A stretch of 45,297 nt of DNA, filler included, from Catajapyx aquilonaris (lineage: Eukaryota), in assembly GCA_000934665.2 (NCBI GenBank). It is 2 parts of 2 records of this genome, joined end to end, with 100 filler letters (N's around TTAATTAATTAA, not from the genome) between each part and the next. Parts side by side here need not be neighbours in the genome. Positions count along the whole stretch, not along the records: positions 22,724 to 45,297 come from KZ539425.1; 1 more part is not named here. One strand, 5' to 3'. Of the stretch, positions 22,724 to 45,297 are shown one piece after another. The position numbers were made by a program, and so were the translations under genes. Positions within the stretch are counted from its first letter, which is position 1, and the number at the start of each line of letters is the position of its first letter. The notes under the pieces are model-generated. The model was not told where the DNA came from. It did no database searches and saw only the letters and a program-made list of their open reading frames with translations.

Positions 22724-23139
22724 TCAACAATACCTCGGACATGAGCAATGGCCAACTGACATCAGGAGAAACTCCATTACAATTCTTTGATGATTAAACT
22801 TAAGGTCGACCTGGAAAAACAAAGTTAGTGGTTTAGGTTGAAGAATTTGAGAATGCCAGTAATTGACAACGACGTTGAACTTGGCCGTATTTCAGATCTC
22901 ACCACTTTTGACGGCCAAGCAGTCAGGAAAACTTGACCTTTTTTTACAGGAAGGTTTTTGGTGGGATCTCACCTCTTTTTGTAGGCAGGAGTGTAGGATA
23001 ATTATAAGAAAGCTCGGGGAGCCCCCTACGGTTGGGCGTGGAAGCAATGGTCCGTTAAATATTCCAAATAAGGTAATGAATAACTTAGAGCAAAATGTGT
23101 AGGTTATATACGAAAGTATGTAAAACGCTATCTTTTCCT

Positions 23140-37477: not shown

Positions 37478-38115
37478 TTAAACTGTTAAGGAGACTGTTA
37501 AAGATAAGGTGTGTAGTAGGTCTACTCTAAGGTGGTTTGGCCATGTGGAGAGGATGAAGGAGGAGGAGATTGTGAAGAAGGTTTATTTGGGTGGAGTAGT
37601 TGGTAAGAGGGGCAAGGGTAGGCCTAGGAAGACATGGTTGGACCAGGTGGGTCAGTGTCTTAAGGGTGTTGCTAGTGTTAAGCCGAGACGTTCATGTGTC
37701 AATAGGACCATGGACGTGGCTGAGGCTAGGGTTGTTTGTTTGGATAGGTGTAAATGGTGTAGGTTAATTAATGGGTAAATAGGTTTGAGGATAAGGCTTC
37801 CTTCACTCCGGCAAGTAGAGGGGACGTCCTTGGCGGGGTCGATGAGGTGCAAGGGTGGTGCCATACACGTCGCGTGGCCAGGGCGTCCGGAGTAGTGGCT
37901 GGTGGCCAAGGGGGTTGATTTGGTGAAGTACCGTATTGCATAGTGTAATATTTAAATTTAATATTCAGTGTCTGTCATCTGAGATGGGCAGGTGTGGGGA
38001 GTGGGACGGGTTGTTTATAGGTTTATTTTCACAAGTTTTATTTTAGTTCATATGTTGGGTTAGCTTGCGTCTCCCTTCATCACTGACTACCCCTCATAGG
38101 GAAATGTCGTGATGT

Positions 38116-38174
<59 letters not shown>
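37478..38174 (+). mobile_element. 5'-truncated RTE(BovB-like) LINE 3' fragment
   Basis: LRWFGHVERM...VKKVY...GKRGKGRPRKTWLDQV C-terminus, 3' UTR, (GAT)n tail, TSD GTTTTCATG at 37469-37477 and 38175-38183. Confidence 0.88.
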
Positions 38175-38653
38175 GTTTTCATGACAAGATTCATATTTTG
38201 TGTTGCATGTTGTATGAGAAATTGTTGTTCCAAGCAATAATGGATATGGCCATTGACTGGAGCTATGAAAAGTGGGGTCAGTGCAGGTGGGTAGGGATTC
38301 TTAGGTGCTTTTGTCACCTCTTGTGCCTGGCCAAATCCGTTGTTGCTTCTAACAATGAAAGGGTGCACACAGTTTCCATGCTAAATCTTCATATTGATCA
38401 AACTTCATGGGAACAGAAAAAACCTAAACTGAAAATGAATCTACAGCCAGTCTAGATAATTTGAGTAAAAACATAATTTCCCTAGCTCAAGGGGAACCTT
38501 AAGAATTTTGGCCAAACATTAGCATTATATCCGATAAGGAATTTTTTTCCAGATTTTAATACAAAACCGGTTATAGTGGGGACAGTAATGACTACCGGTA
38601 TTGAATATTTTAAAGATGCGAATGGTCTACAAAAATGGCATAATAATACAATA

Positions 38654-39644: not shown

Positions 39645-40525
39645 TATATCTCGAAACATGAGATCACTGTGAAAAATGGGATTGATAATATCTTGAAAAC
39701 AGTCATGCCCATGCCCCTTAATTTCCCTATAAGGAGCAGTGGTACGGTAATTATACTAATTAATTATGTGAAAGATATAATTAGGCCTACAATCATAGAA
39801 ACGTGTTTACAGGAAATATTTACACATTGGAAGAATGAATTCTACTGATTTGATGGACCAGCCCCACAGTCTGAAACAGTGAATCATCCACGAAAGTTCA
39901 AAAGTGCACATCAGTTGGAGGCCTTCTGGAGCCGTTTTGTGCATATAATATGCACTTGACTAAACTCGGTACCAAATTACCTGTCTAATTGTGGCAAATA
40001 ACATGATGCATCATGTGAATAATTTTGAGTCATCATAGTCTGGGACCACATTTTGAAAGCTTTCAGCAATGATTGCCACAATAACATTATTGCTTGTGTT
40101 TATAGGCCAGTAACAAGCCTAATGCCAAGTTCCTATGCCCAGCAGTTTTAAATACGTATAGCAGGCAGTTTTGATGTTATTTTTGTATACATAAAATCTT
40201 CTTCCCATCATTGGAGCAAAGAATATTTTTTTTGGTCCAATCTAAACGGAAAAATTGCAAGCTTGCTCTTTGCAACACATTCCTTAAAAGTGGGGAATTT
40301 GAACCTAATACACGTTACCTACTTAATCATTTATTACCATCAAGATTTATTGTTACCCAGTTATAGAATGCTTGAATCATAATACAGGGTGGTCAGACAG
40401 CTGTCAGCTTCCGAGCAGGAAGGTCGTGTGGGGTTGGGGCTGTGCACGTGCGCTAAAAGGGCCGGATAAGTTTCCCCAGTTTACTGGCACTAGTGTCTAC
40501 CTGGAACTAGTGTGCACCCATCCAA

Positions 40526-41536
40526 ATGGGGACCGTAACACTCTTGCAAATCGGTGAGTTGTTGGACGCCTTCAAGGCGGACTTTCTGTCCAGGATGGAT
40601 GCTGCCATGCTGAATCTGCGTGCCTCCATGGAGGAATCCAACCGTCAAATTTTGGAGCAATTGGAGGGTCAAAAGGAGGCAACGAAAATCCTGCGGGCAG
40701 AAAACGACCAGCTGTGGACCGAAAATACGCAGCTAAAGTCACGTATGGAGACACTAGAAAATCAATCCCGTAGAAACAACGTCATACTTCGGGGGGTGCA
40801 GGAACGTGAGGGCGAAACCTGGGCGGATGCCGAAAGCCTTTTCCGCAAAACAGTGTCGGACTACCGACTACACTCGGCGCCCGGTCAAATTGAGATCCAA
40901 CGAGCGCACCGACTGGGTCCCAGGCAACAGGGACGAAACCGCCCCATTATTGCTGCACTCCTACGCTTCAAGGATACAGACGAGATAATCTCCAATGGAA
41001 GGAACCTCAAGGACTCTTCGATTAGTTTGGCGGAGGACTTCTCGTCATCGACACGAGACAAGAGGCGACAGTTGACACCCTACCTAAAGGAGGCCAAGAT
41101 GAAGGGCAACAAAGCACGACTCAGGGTGGACAAGCTGATTGTGAACGGGACGCAATATGAATTGACGGAGGACGGCCGCGACATCCAGATGTCCTACCGC
41201 AACTACGGGAGGCAGTTTACGGATCGCAGCTCTGACGTCATCGAGGTGGCTCCGTATGGAAAAAGGCCTGTACAATCCCCGATGAATGTGGACAGCACAG
41301 CAAAGAAACCAAATACAACGAATACCAGCCCACAGCAACAACATGAAGCTGGAGACGACCATGACCTCGTCCATGATCAAGCGGCTGTTGACCTGAGTGA
41401 ACCGCCTATTGACGACGGGGAAGAACTCGTCGAGAACCAGGCGCAGTCGCACACGCTGCCCGTAGCAGCCAAGCTAAGTAAATTTAAGCGTAACCAGCCG
41501 AAAGGGAAAGAGCCCCAGCAAGCTCCTGGGAACTAA
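40526..41536 (+). CDS. LINE ORF1 (coiled coil + L1 Transposase_22-like RRM/CTD)
   Basis: Heptad region, then LENQSRRNNVILRGV.E, IQRAHRLG...RPIIA, EDFS..TR..RR.L, DKLIVNG. Confidence 0.88.
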   Translation: MGTVTLLQIGELLDAFKADFLSRMDAAMLNLRASMEESNRQILEQLEGQKEATKILRAENDQLWTENTQLKSRMETLENQSRRNNVILRGVQEREGETWADAESLFRKTVSDYRLHSAPGQIEIQRAHRLGPRQQGRNRPIIAALLRFKDTDEIISNGRNLKDSSISLAEDFSSSTRDKRRQLTPYLKEAKMKGNKARLRVDKLIVNGTQYELTEDGRDIQMSYRNYGRQFTDRSSDVIEVAPYGKRPVQSPMNVDSTAKKPNTTNTSPQQQHEAGDDHDLVHDQAAVDLSEPPIDDGEELVENQAQSHTLPVAAKLSKFKRNQPKGKEPQQAPGN

Positions 41537-44500
41537 CAACTAAAATGTGTCAGTGACTCTCAGATACCTTTAACAAGTTCGCAGATAGCTTGTTGGAATA
41601 TCGCGGGTACCTCGATTCTTGATCGAGCTTCTGATATTCTCAATGGGCAATCAAACTGTATAGTACTAGGTCTGTTGGAAACATGGTGCGCGATACCTGT
41701 GTCACTACCTTCCCTCGAGTGTCGTTATTCTTTTTTCCAAACTCCGGCAGTGAAACTACACAAAGTTGGCCGCGGAATGGTGTTACTAGTTGCAAAAGCA
41801 TGGGCTATCACTGTGGTGCGGTCCTCTGAGTGGTTTATTGCAGTCAAATTGATTCTCGGTACTGTTTCCTTTGTGGTTATTCTTGTCTATTGTGTGCCAA
41901 GTGGCGATTTTGCGGACATGCTGAATGAACTTGCTTTGATGATCAATGATGTGTATGATGATGGTGACCCTGTTTTGCTGATGGGCGACTTTAACGCCCG
42001 GCTGGGCAATTATTTCTCACAGATTAACCCCAGCATTAGTGGCCCCAACCAGTTGCTGGTTAGGGCATCCAGAGACAGTGTATTGAACCGCAGGGGCAAA
42101 CTTTTTTGGAACTTTGCGGAGGATTTATCTCTTACGATAGTAAATGGTACCACCAGGTCAGATGCGAAAGGGGAATACACGTTCGTTTCACACCAAGGCT
42201 GCTCAGTAATTGACCTCATTGGAGTGTCCGAGTTGGCGTATAGCTGGACTCAGGACTTCCAAGTTCTAAATCAAATTGGATCCGACCATTTCCCAGTAGT
42301 CTTGTCCCTCACCCTTCCCACCTACCACGTTGCGGTGTACCGACCTACTCCTATAATGAAATTAGCTCCTACTTGGTCGCCACTCGACCATCTGGCAGAC
42401 AAAATAGAGGAATGGGACTTATTGGAACTTCCTAACCAGATGACCCCGGGTAATGACATACAGGCGACATTGGATAGTTCGGCGATATCTTTCCAAGAAA
42501 ACGCACAGGCTCTTTTGCGCGACCAAGGCTTACTCTACGAATTTAGACCACCCAGCCCTAACAACATTCGAATAAATACAGCAAGATGGTACGACTCGGA
42601 ACTTAGGGATAGGAAAAAACAAGTGCTTGCCAAATTAGAACTATGGCGGAAACAGCCGACGCCGCAACTTTCGCTGGAATATAGGTCAATGAACTCAGAA
42701 TACAAAAACCTAAAGATAGCAAAAGCAAAACGATACACAGCTGAAAGGCTGAAATTATTAACAGAGACAAAGGAGGCCAAAACTTTTTGGCGCATAATCA
42801 AGGAAACCGAGAACAATAGGAATCGTGCCTCCATACCAGACGGAAATTGGTGGGAATACATAAACGAGGCTTTCGGTTCAGGTTGCCGATTCGACGACAT
42901 GCCCTTGGAGCCAAGGTCGACGTGTAATTCGAGATCGGACTTGATCCTTCTGAAATATATTTCTCAGGACGAGTTACTGGCACAAATCAAGAAGTTGAAC
43001 GGCAATAAATCAGTGGGACCCGACTTCGTATCAAACTCATTCCTAAAGATTGAATCGAAACCGTTGGTTGACTACTTGCTGGGTCTTTTCAATACGTGCC
43101 TGGACACGGCTTCGGTCCCCTCAAATTGGCCTAAAGCTCATGTGATTCCGATTTACAAAAAAGGCGATCCGGACTTGCCGGCAAACTATCGACCAATAAC
43201 GTTATTCAATAATATTTTTAAGCTCTACACTTCCGTTCTGGTCAAGAGACTACAAACCTGGCTTGAAACAAATGACACCCTCCCGGACAGCCAAGCGGCC
43301 TTTAGGCAGGGGCGTGGCTGCCAGGACCAAATCTATATACTAACTACGTTGATACAGTCACGCTTGAGAAGACCGAAAGGGAAACTCTTTGCGCTATTCG
43401 TGGACTTATCGCGCGCTTTTGATAGTGTGGACCATGCCGCTCTGTGGAGGCAGTTAATCTCGGTTGGCTTACCTTGGAAATTTGTCACAACTATTAAGGA
43501 CATATACTCCAAAGTTCGCCTAGTCCCGAAGTTTGCGCAAAGCGAGGAGTTAGCAGTTGCAATAGGGGTCCCGCAGGGTGAACCCCTTTCTCCTACACTA
43601 TTTAATATCTTCATATCAGACATTGACGAATACTTTGCGAATAATGGCGCTCCAGGGGTATCGATAGCTACAAATTGTCCGGACGTGCACCTTCTTGCCT
43701 ACGCTGATGATCTGGTTCTTTTGTCAGACAATCCAGTATACTTCGAGAAGAACATAACCATTCTTCACAACTACTTTGAAACTAAAAATTTGACGATTAA
43801 TTTGGGAAAGACGAAGGTAATGGTTTTCTCGAATGCCGGAAGAATGCACAGCCGGACTTTCTATTTGGACGCAGTGCCGCTGCAACAAGTTAAAGAATAC
43901 ACATATTTGGGAGTGCCTTTCTACAACAACGGAAATTTTAAACGTTCCTTGCAGTTCTTCATAGGGAAAGCGAAAGTGGCAATTCACGCGCTCTGGGCCA
44001 CTCTATTGAAACTCAAGAAGAGACCTCAAGGTGGCGCTCAGACTCTTCTACTCGAAGATTTTTCCGATATTGACCTACGCGGCGCCGGTCTGGTCTTTGG
44101 GCTATTTTGAAGAGTTAGAAGCAATTTATAACCTATACATAAAGAAGTTTTTCGCACTGCCGAAAACTACCGCCGGATATTTTTTGTGACTCGAACTTAA
44201 CTTAAAACCCATTCGACCGCGTTTGATCAAATGGCTTATACGGTTTCTTCTTAAATTGGGTAGAGCTGGAAGTGACTCGCTGCTTCACAGGGCATTCACG
44301 TGCAGCCAAAAAACAGTATCGGGGCACAAGAAGTCAAAATGCTGGATTGAAAGGGCGAGGGTATACCTAGCGGAAGCGGACGCTGCTCTTGATTGCCTCG
44401 AGGATACTGATATGGCTGCATCCCTCGCTAAGCTGACCGAAAACTGTCACCGGGACGACTTGCTGAGACTTAACTCAACTACACGATATGTAAACTATCT

Positions 44501-44879
44501 GGATGCCTGGCAAGACATCCTGAACATACCATCCGAGATACCATCTTATTTGGACGGGTCTTTGCCACTTCCTATATCAAGGCTTATTATTAATATTAAA
44601 AATAGTTCACCATATATTCGGATAAAAGATCAGACTTTGAAGCTAAACAATGACGAATACTGTGAATACTGCAACTTGGATGAGCCTTTCACTTTATATC
44701 TTATAATCTACAGTTGCCCTATATTTGCAACCCCCAGACAAACTTTCCTAAATGATTTCCCGTCGGCCCCTGGTTTTAATTTAGTCCGAATGACCAATAA
44801 CCTGACTCGCGAGGATCACTACAGCCTTTTCAACTTCATCTCGAATGTGCTCAGAAGAGTAACATTCTGTGCATATTGA
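41537..44879 (+). CDS. LINE ORF2 (AP endonuclease + reverse transcriptase + C-terminal Cys motif), with a frameshift near 44020 and a TGA near 44187
   Basis: IACWNIAG, GLLETW, GDFNAR, SVIDL, SDHFPV; NYRPITL, QAAFR, FVDLSRAFDSV, GVPQGEPLSPTLF, YADD, YTYLG; after the frameshift PILTYAAPVW; CEYC...IIYSC. Confidence 0.92.
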
Positions 44880-45142
44880 GAAACGAGCAGTGTAATTCTT
44901 TCCGCTTTCGCATGCGACATGCCGCTTCCCCAATTTCTTGAGCCCAGGTCATATATTGTATTTGTGTACTCTACAAGTGCTTTGGCCCCCTCTTACCTGC
45001 TTTTTGTCAACTGATAACCCACACATGCACCTCATGCTTCTTTCCTTGCCCCACCCTCCTTGATATTAAGTTTGTACGGATGTCTCCCCCTAATGGCTAT
45101 GCCCAACGGGGTAAATTAAATAAAATAATAATAATAATAATA

Positions 45143-45297
45143 CAGGGTGGTCCAACTTTTTTGTCCGAACAGCTATTGACAAATTCGGCCTAAGCTGCTT
45201 ATGTTGTAGTGCGTTACCTGGCAACCCCGGCCAGCGGGCCAATTCAAACACCAGCCCATGGAGAGCGCTTCCATTGTTGCCACTGTTTACAAATCGA
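45143..45297. mobile_element. Left part of a Tc1/mariner-type MITE (family of 6027-6235), target of the LINE insertion
   Basis: TA|CAGGGTGGTCCAACTTTTTTGTCCGAACAG matches the TIRs at 6027 and 6235. Confidence 0.8.

Follow-up and report, generated by a model that had tools for sequence, protein, structure and literature searches.

Introduction

It has long been debated how the ORF2 of a LINE is translated when its RNA is bicistronic. Among leaky stops of viruses, that of MoMLV gag-pol lies in the sequence UAG-GGA and is followed by a downstream pseudoknot (Beier-Grimm type III), and that of tobacco mosaic virus (TMV) reads UAG CAA UUA; the CARYYA consensus for the bases past the stop reportedly goes back to Skuzeski in 1991. 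A LINE layout in which ORF1 and ORF2 share a frame across a stop may already have been reported for plant and fish L1-like elements.

The portions of PMC13517186 that deal with such motifs describe the TMV type I motif as needing no downstream structure to act in plants, yeast or mammals, and in the first two as acting on any of the three stops; they give it as not known from animal viruses and name TAA as the weakest readthrough codon. For LINEs, a review devoted to ORF2 translation (PMC3894237) covers IRES, reinitiation and 2A, and the terms 'readthrough' and 'in-frame' are absent from its text. In L1 the two ORFs lie 63 bases apart, the ORF2 AUG is optional and reinitiation is unconventional, whereas in SART1 they overlap at UAAUG, as summarized in one section of PMC5972666. 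In Candida albicans Zorro3, four in-phase stops separate the ORFs; a passage in one review leaves stop bypass possible (PMC3956500), and another paper finds that a functional first ORF2 ATG is needed for retrotransposition (PMC1965478). For a Paramecium LINE clade, 'Group 3', readthrough appears as a one-line suggestion, made without context analysis in the relevant passage (Guerin et al. 2017, PMC5405496). A full-text literature search for LINE stop readthrough turned up no more than this Paramecium suggestion and the remark on Zorro3.

Results

A defective, full-length APE-type LINE

The DNA analysed, here called the window, is a stretch of 45,297 nucleotides from Catajapyx aquilonaris (GCA_000934665.2), in which positions 22,724 to 45,297 come from KZ539425.1. 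Positions 40395–45137 hold an APE-type LINE with target-site duplications, a copy that is full-length though by now defective (Table 1). The 15-base duplication has exactly two matches in the window, a number that none of 100 shuffles gave, and the element carries a simple-repeat, A/T-rich 3' tail and has neither LTRs nor long internal repeats. ORF2 encodes an AP endonuclease and then a reverse transcriptase (PF14529, Exo_endo_phos_2, E 2e-11; PF03372, E 2e-3; PF00078, RVT_1, E 2e-38), and in a structure database comparison the nearest solved reverse transcriptases were those of R2 and human L1 ORF2p. No second copy of the element was found within the window.

Table 1. Coordinates of the element and its parts in the window
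Feature	Position	Strand	Evidence
Left target-site duplication, TAATACAGGGTGGTC	40380..40394	+	exact repeat
5' untranslated region	40395..40525	+	stretch from duplication to first ATG in ORF1 frame; border inferred from duplication
ORF1, 336 aa	40526..41533	+	frame; AlphaFold model; fold matches; homology to upstream ORFs of relatives
Single in-frame stop TAA dividing ORF1 and ORF2	41534..41536	+	reading-frame analysis
Hexamer CAACTA (fits CARYYA, TMV type I context)	41537..41542	+	directly 3' of stop
ATG-less linker, 19 codons, QLKCVSDSQIPLTSSQIAC	41537..41593	+	from stop to endonuclease W-N
Out-of-frame mini-ORF, ATG TGT CAG TGA	41545..41556	+	8 bases past stop
ORF2 AP-type endonuclease domain	41594..42298	+	PF03372 residues 20-251; PF14529 residues 113-254
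ORF2 reverse transcriptase domain	43157..43918	+	PF00078 residues 541-794, E 2e-38
Lesions: frame break and in-frame TGA	44017..44189	+	frame analysis; run-contig comparison
ORF2 C-terminal part with Cys-rich knuckle-like motif (44661-44717)	44190..44879	+	ORF2 profile HMM positions 868-1096
3' untranslated region, A/T-rich, (AAT)n tail at end	44880..45137	+	sequence
Right target-site duplication	45138..45152	+	exact repeat of left one

The ORF1 frame covers 40511..41536, its TAA included, and the length of ORF1 is counted from the first ATG at 40526. Searched by sequence, ORF1 returned no Pfam family above cut-off and no PDB match. An AlphaFold model of the protein has a pLDDT above 90 across about residues 11–220, except that two blocks of ten residues (71–80 and 111–120) fall to 79, and below 50 in the tail. 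The model places a helix at residues 6–81, a beta-alpha-beta-beta-alpha-beta arrangement at 85–170 and a C-terminal domain at 174–222, and the parts assigned to these stretches are a coiled coil, an RRM-like domain and the C-terminal domain, followed by a disordered tail (226–336). In a PDB fold search with this model the best 11 matches were all human LINE-1 ORF1p (E 1e-8 to 7e-5). The predicted architecture, coiled coil plus RRM plus C-terminal domain, is that of an L1-type (type II) ORF1p.

One stop separates ORF1 from an ATG-less ORF2

Frame analysis directly established the anatomy of the junction and agreed with the original prediction that ORF1 ends at the TAA at 41534–41536 and that the same frame stays open into the endonuclease. 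The codons after the stop are CAA CTA AAA TGT GTC, and the frame continues to 44110 (857 aa), reading QLKCVSDSQIPLTSSQIACWNIAGTS. The linker before W20-N21 has no in-frame ATG, and near-cognates in frame are limited to two ATA codons. Both ATGs are also where they had been placed: the first one in the ORF2 frame, at 41777 (residue 81), lies inside the endonuclease, behind N21 and E48-T49-W50 (invariant residues taken from invariant alignment columns), and the only nearby one, at 41545, is in another frame and meets a stop after three codons. Judged from this frame, ORF2 could not start at an AUG without loss of the endonuclease N21 and E48. A restart AUG of the SART1/calicivirus type, overlapping or adjoining the stop and in the ORF2 frame, was not found at 41534–41536.

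An ATG-less ORF2 is in itself no proof of readthrough, since human L1 ORF2 can start without its AUG, according to passages of PMC5009743 and PMC5972666. The main rival of readthrough is one in which, as has been proposed for mammalian L1, ribosomes would terminate at the TAA and ORF2p would be made separately, by AUG-independent reinitiation or internal initiation at a non-AUG codon, with the shared frame incidental or historical. We regard this as unlikely, though deserving of serious attention. The same passages hold initiation independent of the ORF2 AUG to be likelier than bypassing in human L1, and SART1 couples its ORFs at UAAUG (PMC5009743, PMC5972666 and PMC3708506, in the parts concerned with that element); the short out-of-frame ATG 8 bases past the window stop points the same way. 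Against this stand the window linker, with no in-frame AUG and two AUA as its only near-cognates, and the judgement, in the part of PMC3894237 on ORF2 translation, that classical reinitiation after a long ORF1 is highly improbable.

The sequence TAA CAA CTA fits the type I (TMV-like) pattern of stop plus CARYYA, with TAA in place of UAG, the leaky codon of that type. CARYYA occurs at 0.26–0.32% of all positions (element and window). Because 5 of 1192 codon-aligned positions in the element's own coding sequence carry it, its presence straight after the junction stop is a ~0.4% event, a figure that covers CARYYA alone, while the original prediction might have taken several other 'leaky' contexts. 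The RNA after the window stop is not taken here as a stimulatory structure: a 127-base fold had z = −2.2, but the first 80 bases past the stop are not unusually structured, ranking at the 38th percentile among coding windows of the element itself.

A contig from another sample of the species shares the stop

The window copy is damaged. Its ORF2 frame ends at 44110 by a frame break and continues in another frame, and the continuing ORF2 frame holds an in-frame TGA at 44187–44189. The same-species comparison used contigs of four DNA runs from one sample, from which neither copy number nor expression can be read. Relative to the window, these contigs have a 9-base length difference at 41771 in the endonuclease region and a 2-base length difference at 44017, and all of them differ from it at 44701, inside the Cys-rich motif.

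Such decay would suit a private nonsense mutation, whereby the family would have a single ORF (fused ORF1-EN-RT) or some other layout and the TAA would have arisen in a dying copy. The gene models of some relatives, for example a sawfly protein (P0105), could be read similarly, as they join an ORF1-like part to an EN-RT part in a single predicted protein with no stop between, but these are eukaryotic gene models, which may splice out a stop. The junction TAA-CAACTA is identical in the one contig per run that spans 41427–42320 (41427–42201 in one run); this contig, near-identical to the window copy and from another sample of the species, lacks three of the window's lesions yet keeps the same TAA. 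With an equivalent stop also in 22/22 informative relatives, 14 of them with an ORF2 frame exceeding 1000 codons (see below), we consider a private nonsense mutation very improbable.

Protein and metagenome searches found no close family members outside one same-species sample. Word-indexed protein searches across the junction gave no matches (lengths 656–2090 aa; 225–718 aa), an exhaustive protein search gave relatives at 28–38% identity only, and scanning metagenomes with this one ORF2 protein gave 66 pattern matches, 0 of them confirmed. The nearest arthropod protein relatives begin with a Met upstream of the endonuclease, these starts being gene-caller choices. The names that related proteins carry gave no guide to a LINE clade such as CR1, Jockey, I or L2.

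Distant relatives keep the stop and the frame

Our survey of distant relatives covered 80 metagenome loci scanned with an ORF2 profile, and 22 were informative, in that the N-terminus of the endonuclease is intact and both a stop and further DNA lie upstream of it. Loci L027, L029 and L076, whose frame is open to the contig end, and L014, whose stop lies in the contig's first bases, were unscorable; the 98 residues read upstream in L029 gave no ORF1 match. The loci are strongly diverged, with endonuclease identities of 13–47% for all pairs but one (78%). Every one of the 22 informative loci has a stop at the corresponding position. The ORF2 frame exceeds 1000 codons in 14; a stop within the locus ends 13 of these frames, and the remaining one (L022) runs off its contig.

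In 19 of the 22, a same-frame ORF of 109–751 aa directly precedes the stop (binomial vs 1/3, p = 4e-7), the pattern of a downstream ORF in frame across lineages with the stop retained that programmed readthrough would leave. Linkers between stop and WN range from 4 to 214 codons; therefore many indels have happened, all of them frame-keeping. The original prediction had named a sense codon at the junction, or a variable frame, as findings that would count against it, and the relatives displayed neither. An alternative genetic code behind these stops was considered and rejected, each locus having one such codon, at the junction, and the ORF2 frame exceeding 1000 codons in 14/19.

The upstream ORFs of four relatives are homologous in sequence to the window ORF1 directly, and a homology network joins those of 14 relatives with it; against Pfam, the ORF1s of the 19 in-frame relatives gave only sub-threshold, coiled-coil-like matches. 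An in-frame ATG between stop and WN is absent in 14/19 in-frame loci and present in 5/19, and all three out-of-frame loci have an ATG before WN (Fisher p = 0.036 vs in-frame loci). The five in-frame relatives that do have an ATG ahead of WN, at a short distance or further upstream, are what reinitiation might lead one to expect, yet reinitiation imposes no frame constraint, and 19/22 loci are in frame despite linkers of such different lengths.

Junction stops avoid TAA and lie in leaky-type contexts

The junction stops of the 19 in-frame relatives are TAG in 11, TGA in 8 and TAA in none, whereas the stops that end ORF2 in the same loci (n = 13) are TAA in 6, TGA in 6 and TAG in 1 (Fisher p = 0.002 for TAA). 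The base after a junction TAG is G in 9/11 (p = 8e-5) and that after a junction TGA is C in 5/8 (p = 0.01); taken together, G or C follows 15/19 junction stops and 2/13 terminal stops (p = 8e-4). Exact Beier-Grimm viral readthrough motifs, as far as the list in PMC13517186 extends, occur at six junctions: UGACGG (L019, L022), UAGGGV (L069, L072), UAGGUA (L071) and UAGGAU (L066). Reinitiation predicts neither the avoidance of TAA nor the G/C bias past the stop. Since 19/22 loci are in frame, with leaky-type stops and contexts, an in-frame, leaky-type stop is conserved across the wider group, and to judge from these sequences this argues for gag-pol-like readthrough.

CARYYA follows the stop in 0/19 in-frame relatives. 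It is therefore not a conserved family signal, being common only to the window element and one near-identical same-species contig, and for the same reason the comparative support for CAACTA as a signal is limited to that contig. Within the group compared, the CARYYA hexamer and the TAA are both peculiar to the window element.

In the TAG-type relatives the predicted structure past the stop is more stable than their own coding background, lying at or below the 25th percentile in 11/11, and the predicted hairpins begin past the stop, which they leave unpaired. Recoding of the RNA deserves mention here. In hepatitis delta virus, A-to-I editing at the amber/W site turns a stop into a Trp codon, and a similar edit, or another bypass, could in principle join ORF1 to ORF2. 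TAG and TGA are one edit away from UGG and TAA two, which would also explain the 0/19 TAA, and the stable structures of the 11 TAG-type relatives would suit editing as well. The window stop, however, is TAA in surroundings that are not unusually structured, the relatives' hairpins leave the stop unpaired, and their contexts match ribosomal readthrough motifs. We give such recoding scarcely any credence.

Discussion

With moderate confidence we favour readthrough of the single in-frame stop, yielding an ORF1p-ORF2p fusion, as the most likely mechanism suggested by these sequences. Most ribosomes would terminate at the stop and release ORF1p, and a small fraction would decode it with a near-cognate tRNA to give an ORF1p-linker-ORF2p fusion. 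Readthrough would set a high ORF1p:ORF2p ratio, and the fusion would tie ORF2p to its encoding RNA, much as in gammaretrovirus gag-pol readthrough. In the window element the TMV-type CAACTA may serve as the stimulator. That readthrough occurs, how efficient it is and that CAACTA acts together with TAA in this host are inferences.

The proposal of an ORF1-ORF2 fusion by programmed readthrough has thus fared unevenly. It gains from the single in-frame stop, the usual lack of an ATG, the avoidance of TAA and the G/C contexts; it loses from the lack of CARYYA in relatives and from the window stop itself, a TAA, which no relative uses at its junction. More broadly, a readthrough fusion may be the sole form of ORF2p in an ancient, large assemblage of APE-type LINEs whose ORF1p is L1-like, its lineages having independently settled on each of the three leaky-stop classes that viruses use (UAG-G with downstream structure, UGA-C, and stop plus CARYYA in the window element); we see this wider proposal as evenly balanced.

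If true, readthrough would be a third general way in which LINEs translate ORF2, in addition to reinitiation and stop-start coupling. It would offer a simple physical basis for the ORF1p:ORF2p ratio and for cis-preference, ORF2p being covalently joined to ORF1p on its own RNA, and ORF2 annotations that start at the first internal Met would be systematically truncated for such elements. Short reporter constructs would put the hypothesis to a direct test, and the junctions of the relatives would supply a varied, naturally occurring collection of readthrough contexts from eukaryotic hosts.

Comparison with known systems

The Paramecium 'Group 3' LINEs differ from the window element in forming a ciliate-specific clade, with a zinc-finger ORF1 and a host with reassigned stop codons, as portrayed in the section of PMC5405496 that treats them. 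Zorro3 is similar in that its ORF2 is set off from ORF1 by in-phase stops. With L1 and SART1 the window element shares a bicistronic RNA and the need for low ORF2p output, and with L1 in particular the predicted fold of ORF1p; unlike them, it has neither a spacer nor an in-frame AUG.

Its CAACTA fits CARYYA right past the stop, as in the TMV type I context, but the stop is TAA rather than UAG, the host is an animal and the hexamer is not conserved in relatives. Gammaretrovirus gag-pol differs in other ways: the LINE, a non-LTR element, lacks a protease that would split the fusion, the window stop is a TAA in a type I rather than a type III context, and the structures predicted for the relatives are hairpins. 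In both systems, however, a structural RNA-binding protein and a polymerase lie in one frame over one leaky stop, giving (in the LINE, by prediction) a fusion at low ratio, and the TAG-type relatives come nearer still, with G after the stop in 9/11, four matches to type III hexamers and relatively stable structure downstream in 11/11.

The ORF1-ORF2 junction

Frame analysis and the codon listing of the window element, an APE-type LINE, agree with the layout described in the original prediction, in which ORF1 and ORF2 share one frame, a single TAA separates them, CAACTA follows this stop and ORF2 begins without an AUG. The peptide encoded directly after the stop is QLKCVSDSQIPLTSSQIAC, which leads into WNIAG, the start motif of the AP-type endonuclease, and the Pfam families Exo_endo_phos_2, Exo_endo_phos and RVT_1 are all matched in the post-stop frame. 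The 19-codon linker between the stop and this motif (WN) contains no ATG, and its only near-cognates are two ATA codons. Alignments with relatives show no variation at N21 and E48-T49-W50, which by analogy with the L1 endonuclease presumably belong to the catalytic residues. The first in-frame ATG lies beyond these positions, so ORF2p begun at an AUG would miss the N-terminal catalytic part of the endonuclease. The chance of finding CARYYA, the TMV-type (type I) leaky-stop hexamer, directly after the junction stop is about 0.4% in this element; the 80 bases past the stop fold unremarkably compared with the element's own coding windows.

Coordinates of features in the window and, where a locus is named, on metagenome contigs of distant relatives
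Feature	Position	Remark
Trinucleotide microsatellite	38087-38455	long; frames give poly-Asp, poly-His or poly-Ile
15-base direct repeat	40380-40394; 45138-45152	TAATACAGGGTGGTC
Element	40395-45137	(AAT)n tail
ORF1	40526-41533	frame opens 40511; first ATG 40526
Junction stop TAA	41534-41536
CAACTA (codons CAA CTA)	41537-41542
Post-stop frame	to 44110	open 857 codons
Junction contigs	41427-42320	one per run; 41427-42201 in one run
Mini-ORF ATG TGT CAG TGA	41545-41556	three codons, other frame, starts 8 bases past ORF1 stop
First in-frame ATG	41777	residue 81
Length differences, window vs all run contigs	41771; 42892; 44017	9, 3 and 2 bases
ORF2 frame break (near)	44017-44110
TGA in continuing frame	44187-44189
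Differing base	44701	inside Cys-rich motif; window unlike all run contigs
2A-like GDIESNPGP	L036:282-480	just upstream of endonuclease
Very long in-frame upstream ORFs	L023:801-3053; L069:86-2311; L071:109-1941	611-751 aa

The element and its copies

The 15-base repeat occurs exactly twice in the window, an outcome obtained in 0 of 100 shuffles, and flanks a 4.7-kb unit, which marks the element as inserted in full length with the repeat as its target-site duplication. By sequence, ORF1 matches nothing in Pfam or PDB. Its AlphaFold model, with 15 homologues as input, places a long helix at residues 6-81, followed by an RRM-like domain and then a small C-terminal one, with a disordered tail of 110 residues that reaches the stop; the top 11 matches of the model among PDB folds are all human LINE-1 ORF1p.

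The window, in which 158 letters are N, holds no second copy of the element, and its one copy, with a broken ORF2 frame, is dead. In four DNA runs from one same-species sample, 67-73% of the element's sampled words are present. We compared the assembled contigs with the element at 80% likeness, and the sample's copies look more intact. The contig that spans the junction in each run carries two or three base changes and the 9-base length difference inside the endonuclease, with stop, hexamer and linker all unchanged. Because these contigs lack the window's 2-base and 3-base lesions, the TAA-CAACTA junction is also present in a more intact copy or allele, which we count as one extra, non-independent observation. 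Run contigs and depth rise toward the 3' end of the element, fitting 5'-truncated copies. The closest ORF2 relatives in protein searches, chiefly from arthropod genomes and assembled runs, are only 28-38% identical (about 40% in RT).

Conservation of the layout in distant relatives

An alignment of seven ORF2 sequences served to scan metagenome contigs; of 384 matches the 80 best by similarity were taken, and an ORF2 profile was run over all their stop-to-stop ORFs. Twenty-two loci were informative, having the endonuclease N-terminus in the ORF, an upstream stop and DNA before that stop; we excluded L014, L027, L029 and L076, which run off or start at the contig, and 54 loci without an intact endonuclease start. 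With endonuclease identities of 13-47% (one pair, 78%), the surveyed loci are evidently no near-duplicates.

The frame register is shared: a same-frame ORF of 109-751 aa directly precedes the stop in 19 of the 22, against one third expected under a free frame (p = 4e-7). Stop-to-endonuclease distances of 4 to 214 codons imply repeated insertions and deletions that never broke the frame. A homology network with the window ORF1 takes in 14 of the 19 upstream ORFs. The predicted absence of AUG holds for most relatives: counting from stop to WN (column one of the profile is a Met that precedes WN by three residues), 14 of the 19 in-frame loci have no ATG and five have one, versus an ATG in all three out-of-frame loci (Fisher p = 0.036).

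Predicted proteins from gene models of some arthropod relatives join ORF1-like and ORF2 parts, as would be expected if a private nonsense mutation had made the TAA; yet this origin is unlikely, because a stop stands at the equivalent place in every informative relative, including 14 with an ORF2 frame above 1000 codons (13 close at a stop and L022 runs off its contig). The sawfly gene models P0105 and P0152, in which an ORF1-like RRM region and EN-RT are joined with no stop, are either truly fused relatives or cases where the model spliced the stop out.

L036 is not in frame with its upstream ORF, and the pseudoscorpion gene models P0003 and P0006 carry motifs similar to its NPGP before the ORF1-like part; these 2A-like motifs represent a different predicted recoding device inside the same broad group. 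The very long upstream ORFs of L023, L069 and L071 have no detectable L1-type ORF1 similarity and no Pfam family, and L069 has a Gly/Ser-rich linker of 214 codons past its TAG.

Character of the junction stops

Junction stops of the 19 in-frame relatives comprise 11 TAG, 8 TGA and no TAA, versus 6 TAA, 6 TGA and 1 TAG among 13 ORF2-terminal stops of the same loci (TAA difference, p = 0.002). The next base is G in 9/11 TAG and C in 5/8 TGA loci; G or C follows 15/19 junction but 2/13 terminal stops (p = 8e-4, several of the survey's statistics having been picked after the data were seen). Judged by sequence, these are not ordinary stops. Stop-plus-CARYYA, the signal stressed in the original prediction, is not conserved: none of the 19 has CARYYA or TAA. 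Exact matches to the type II or III viral contexts occur in six relatives (L019, L022, L066, L069, L071 and L072).

Measured against coding windows of the same locus, the 80 bases past the stop fold more stably in every one of the 11 TAG loci (L005, L007, L008, L037, L049, L051, L056, L066, L069, L071 and L072; 25th percentile or lower, and for five of them the 5th or lower). Most TGA loci have no extra stability (TAG versus TGA, Mann-Whitney p = 0.003, post hoc, folds without pseudoknots). As a lead, this structure fits the downstream requirement stated for type III readthrough in a review (PMC13517186).

The layout, a shared frame with a single stop and an ORF2 that lacks an AUG, is real and conserved across the wider group of distant relatives, and bears the signature that a leaky stop would be expected to leave. 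AUG-independent reinitiation, discussed for human L1 (PMC5009743, PMC5972666), would account for an ORF2 without ATG but leaves frame conservation, stop-codon choice and context bias unaccounted for. RNA editing of the stop is only remotely possible. Given the conserved architecture, and though CARYYA and TAA are absent from the 19 relatives, we lean towards readthrough as the best explanation for ORF2p production in the element's lineage. CAACTA is a plausible, putative local stimulator in the window element: according to PMC13517186, the TMV motif needs no structure to function in plants, yeast and mammals, and in the first two of these it is active on each of the three stop codons. UAA is, by the same review, generally the poorest codon for readthrough.

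Comparison with known systems

Reviews of LINE translation describe SART1 UAAUG coupling, unconventional reinitiation in L1, IRES ideas and 2A peptides (PMC3708506, PMC5972666, PMC3894237), and a term search of the one dedicated to ORF2 translation (PMC3894237) found the word "readthrough" absent. In-phase stops in Zorro3 drew an open remark on bypass (PMC3956500); its ORF2 ATG is nevertheless required (PMC1965478). ORF1-stop readthrough has been explicitly proposed for Paramecium Group 3 (PMC5405496). Full-text literature, with few subscription journals covered, yielded no explicit LINE proposal beyond that one. L1-like elements of plants and fish may have drawn similar comments in older work, so earlier mentions may exist.

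The stable post-stop sequence of the TAG-type relatives resembles structure-dependent retroviral type III readthrough. The layout would be a gag-pol-style leaky stop in a non-LTR element; the new point is possibly that it is broad and ancient, with lineages differing in the viral-type context they carry.
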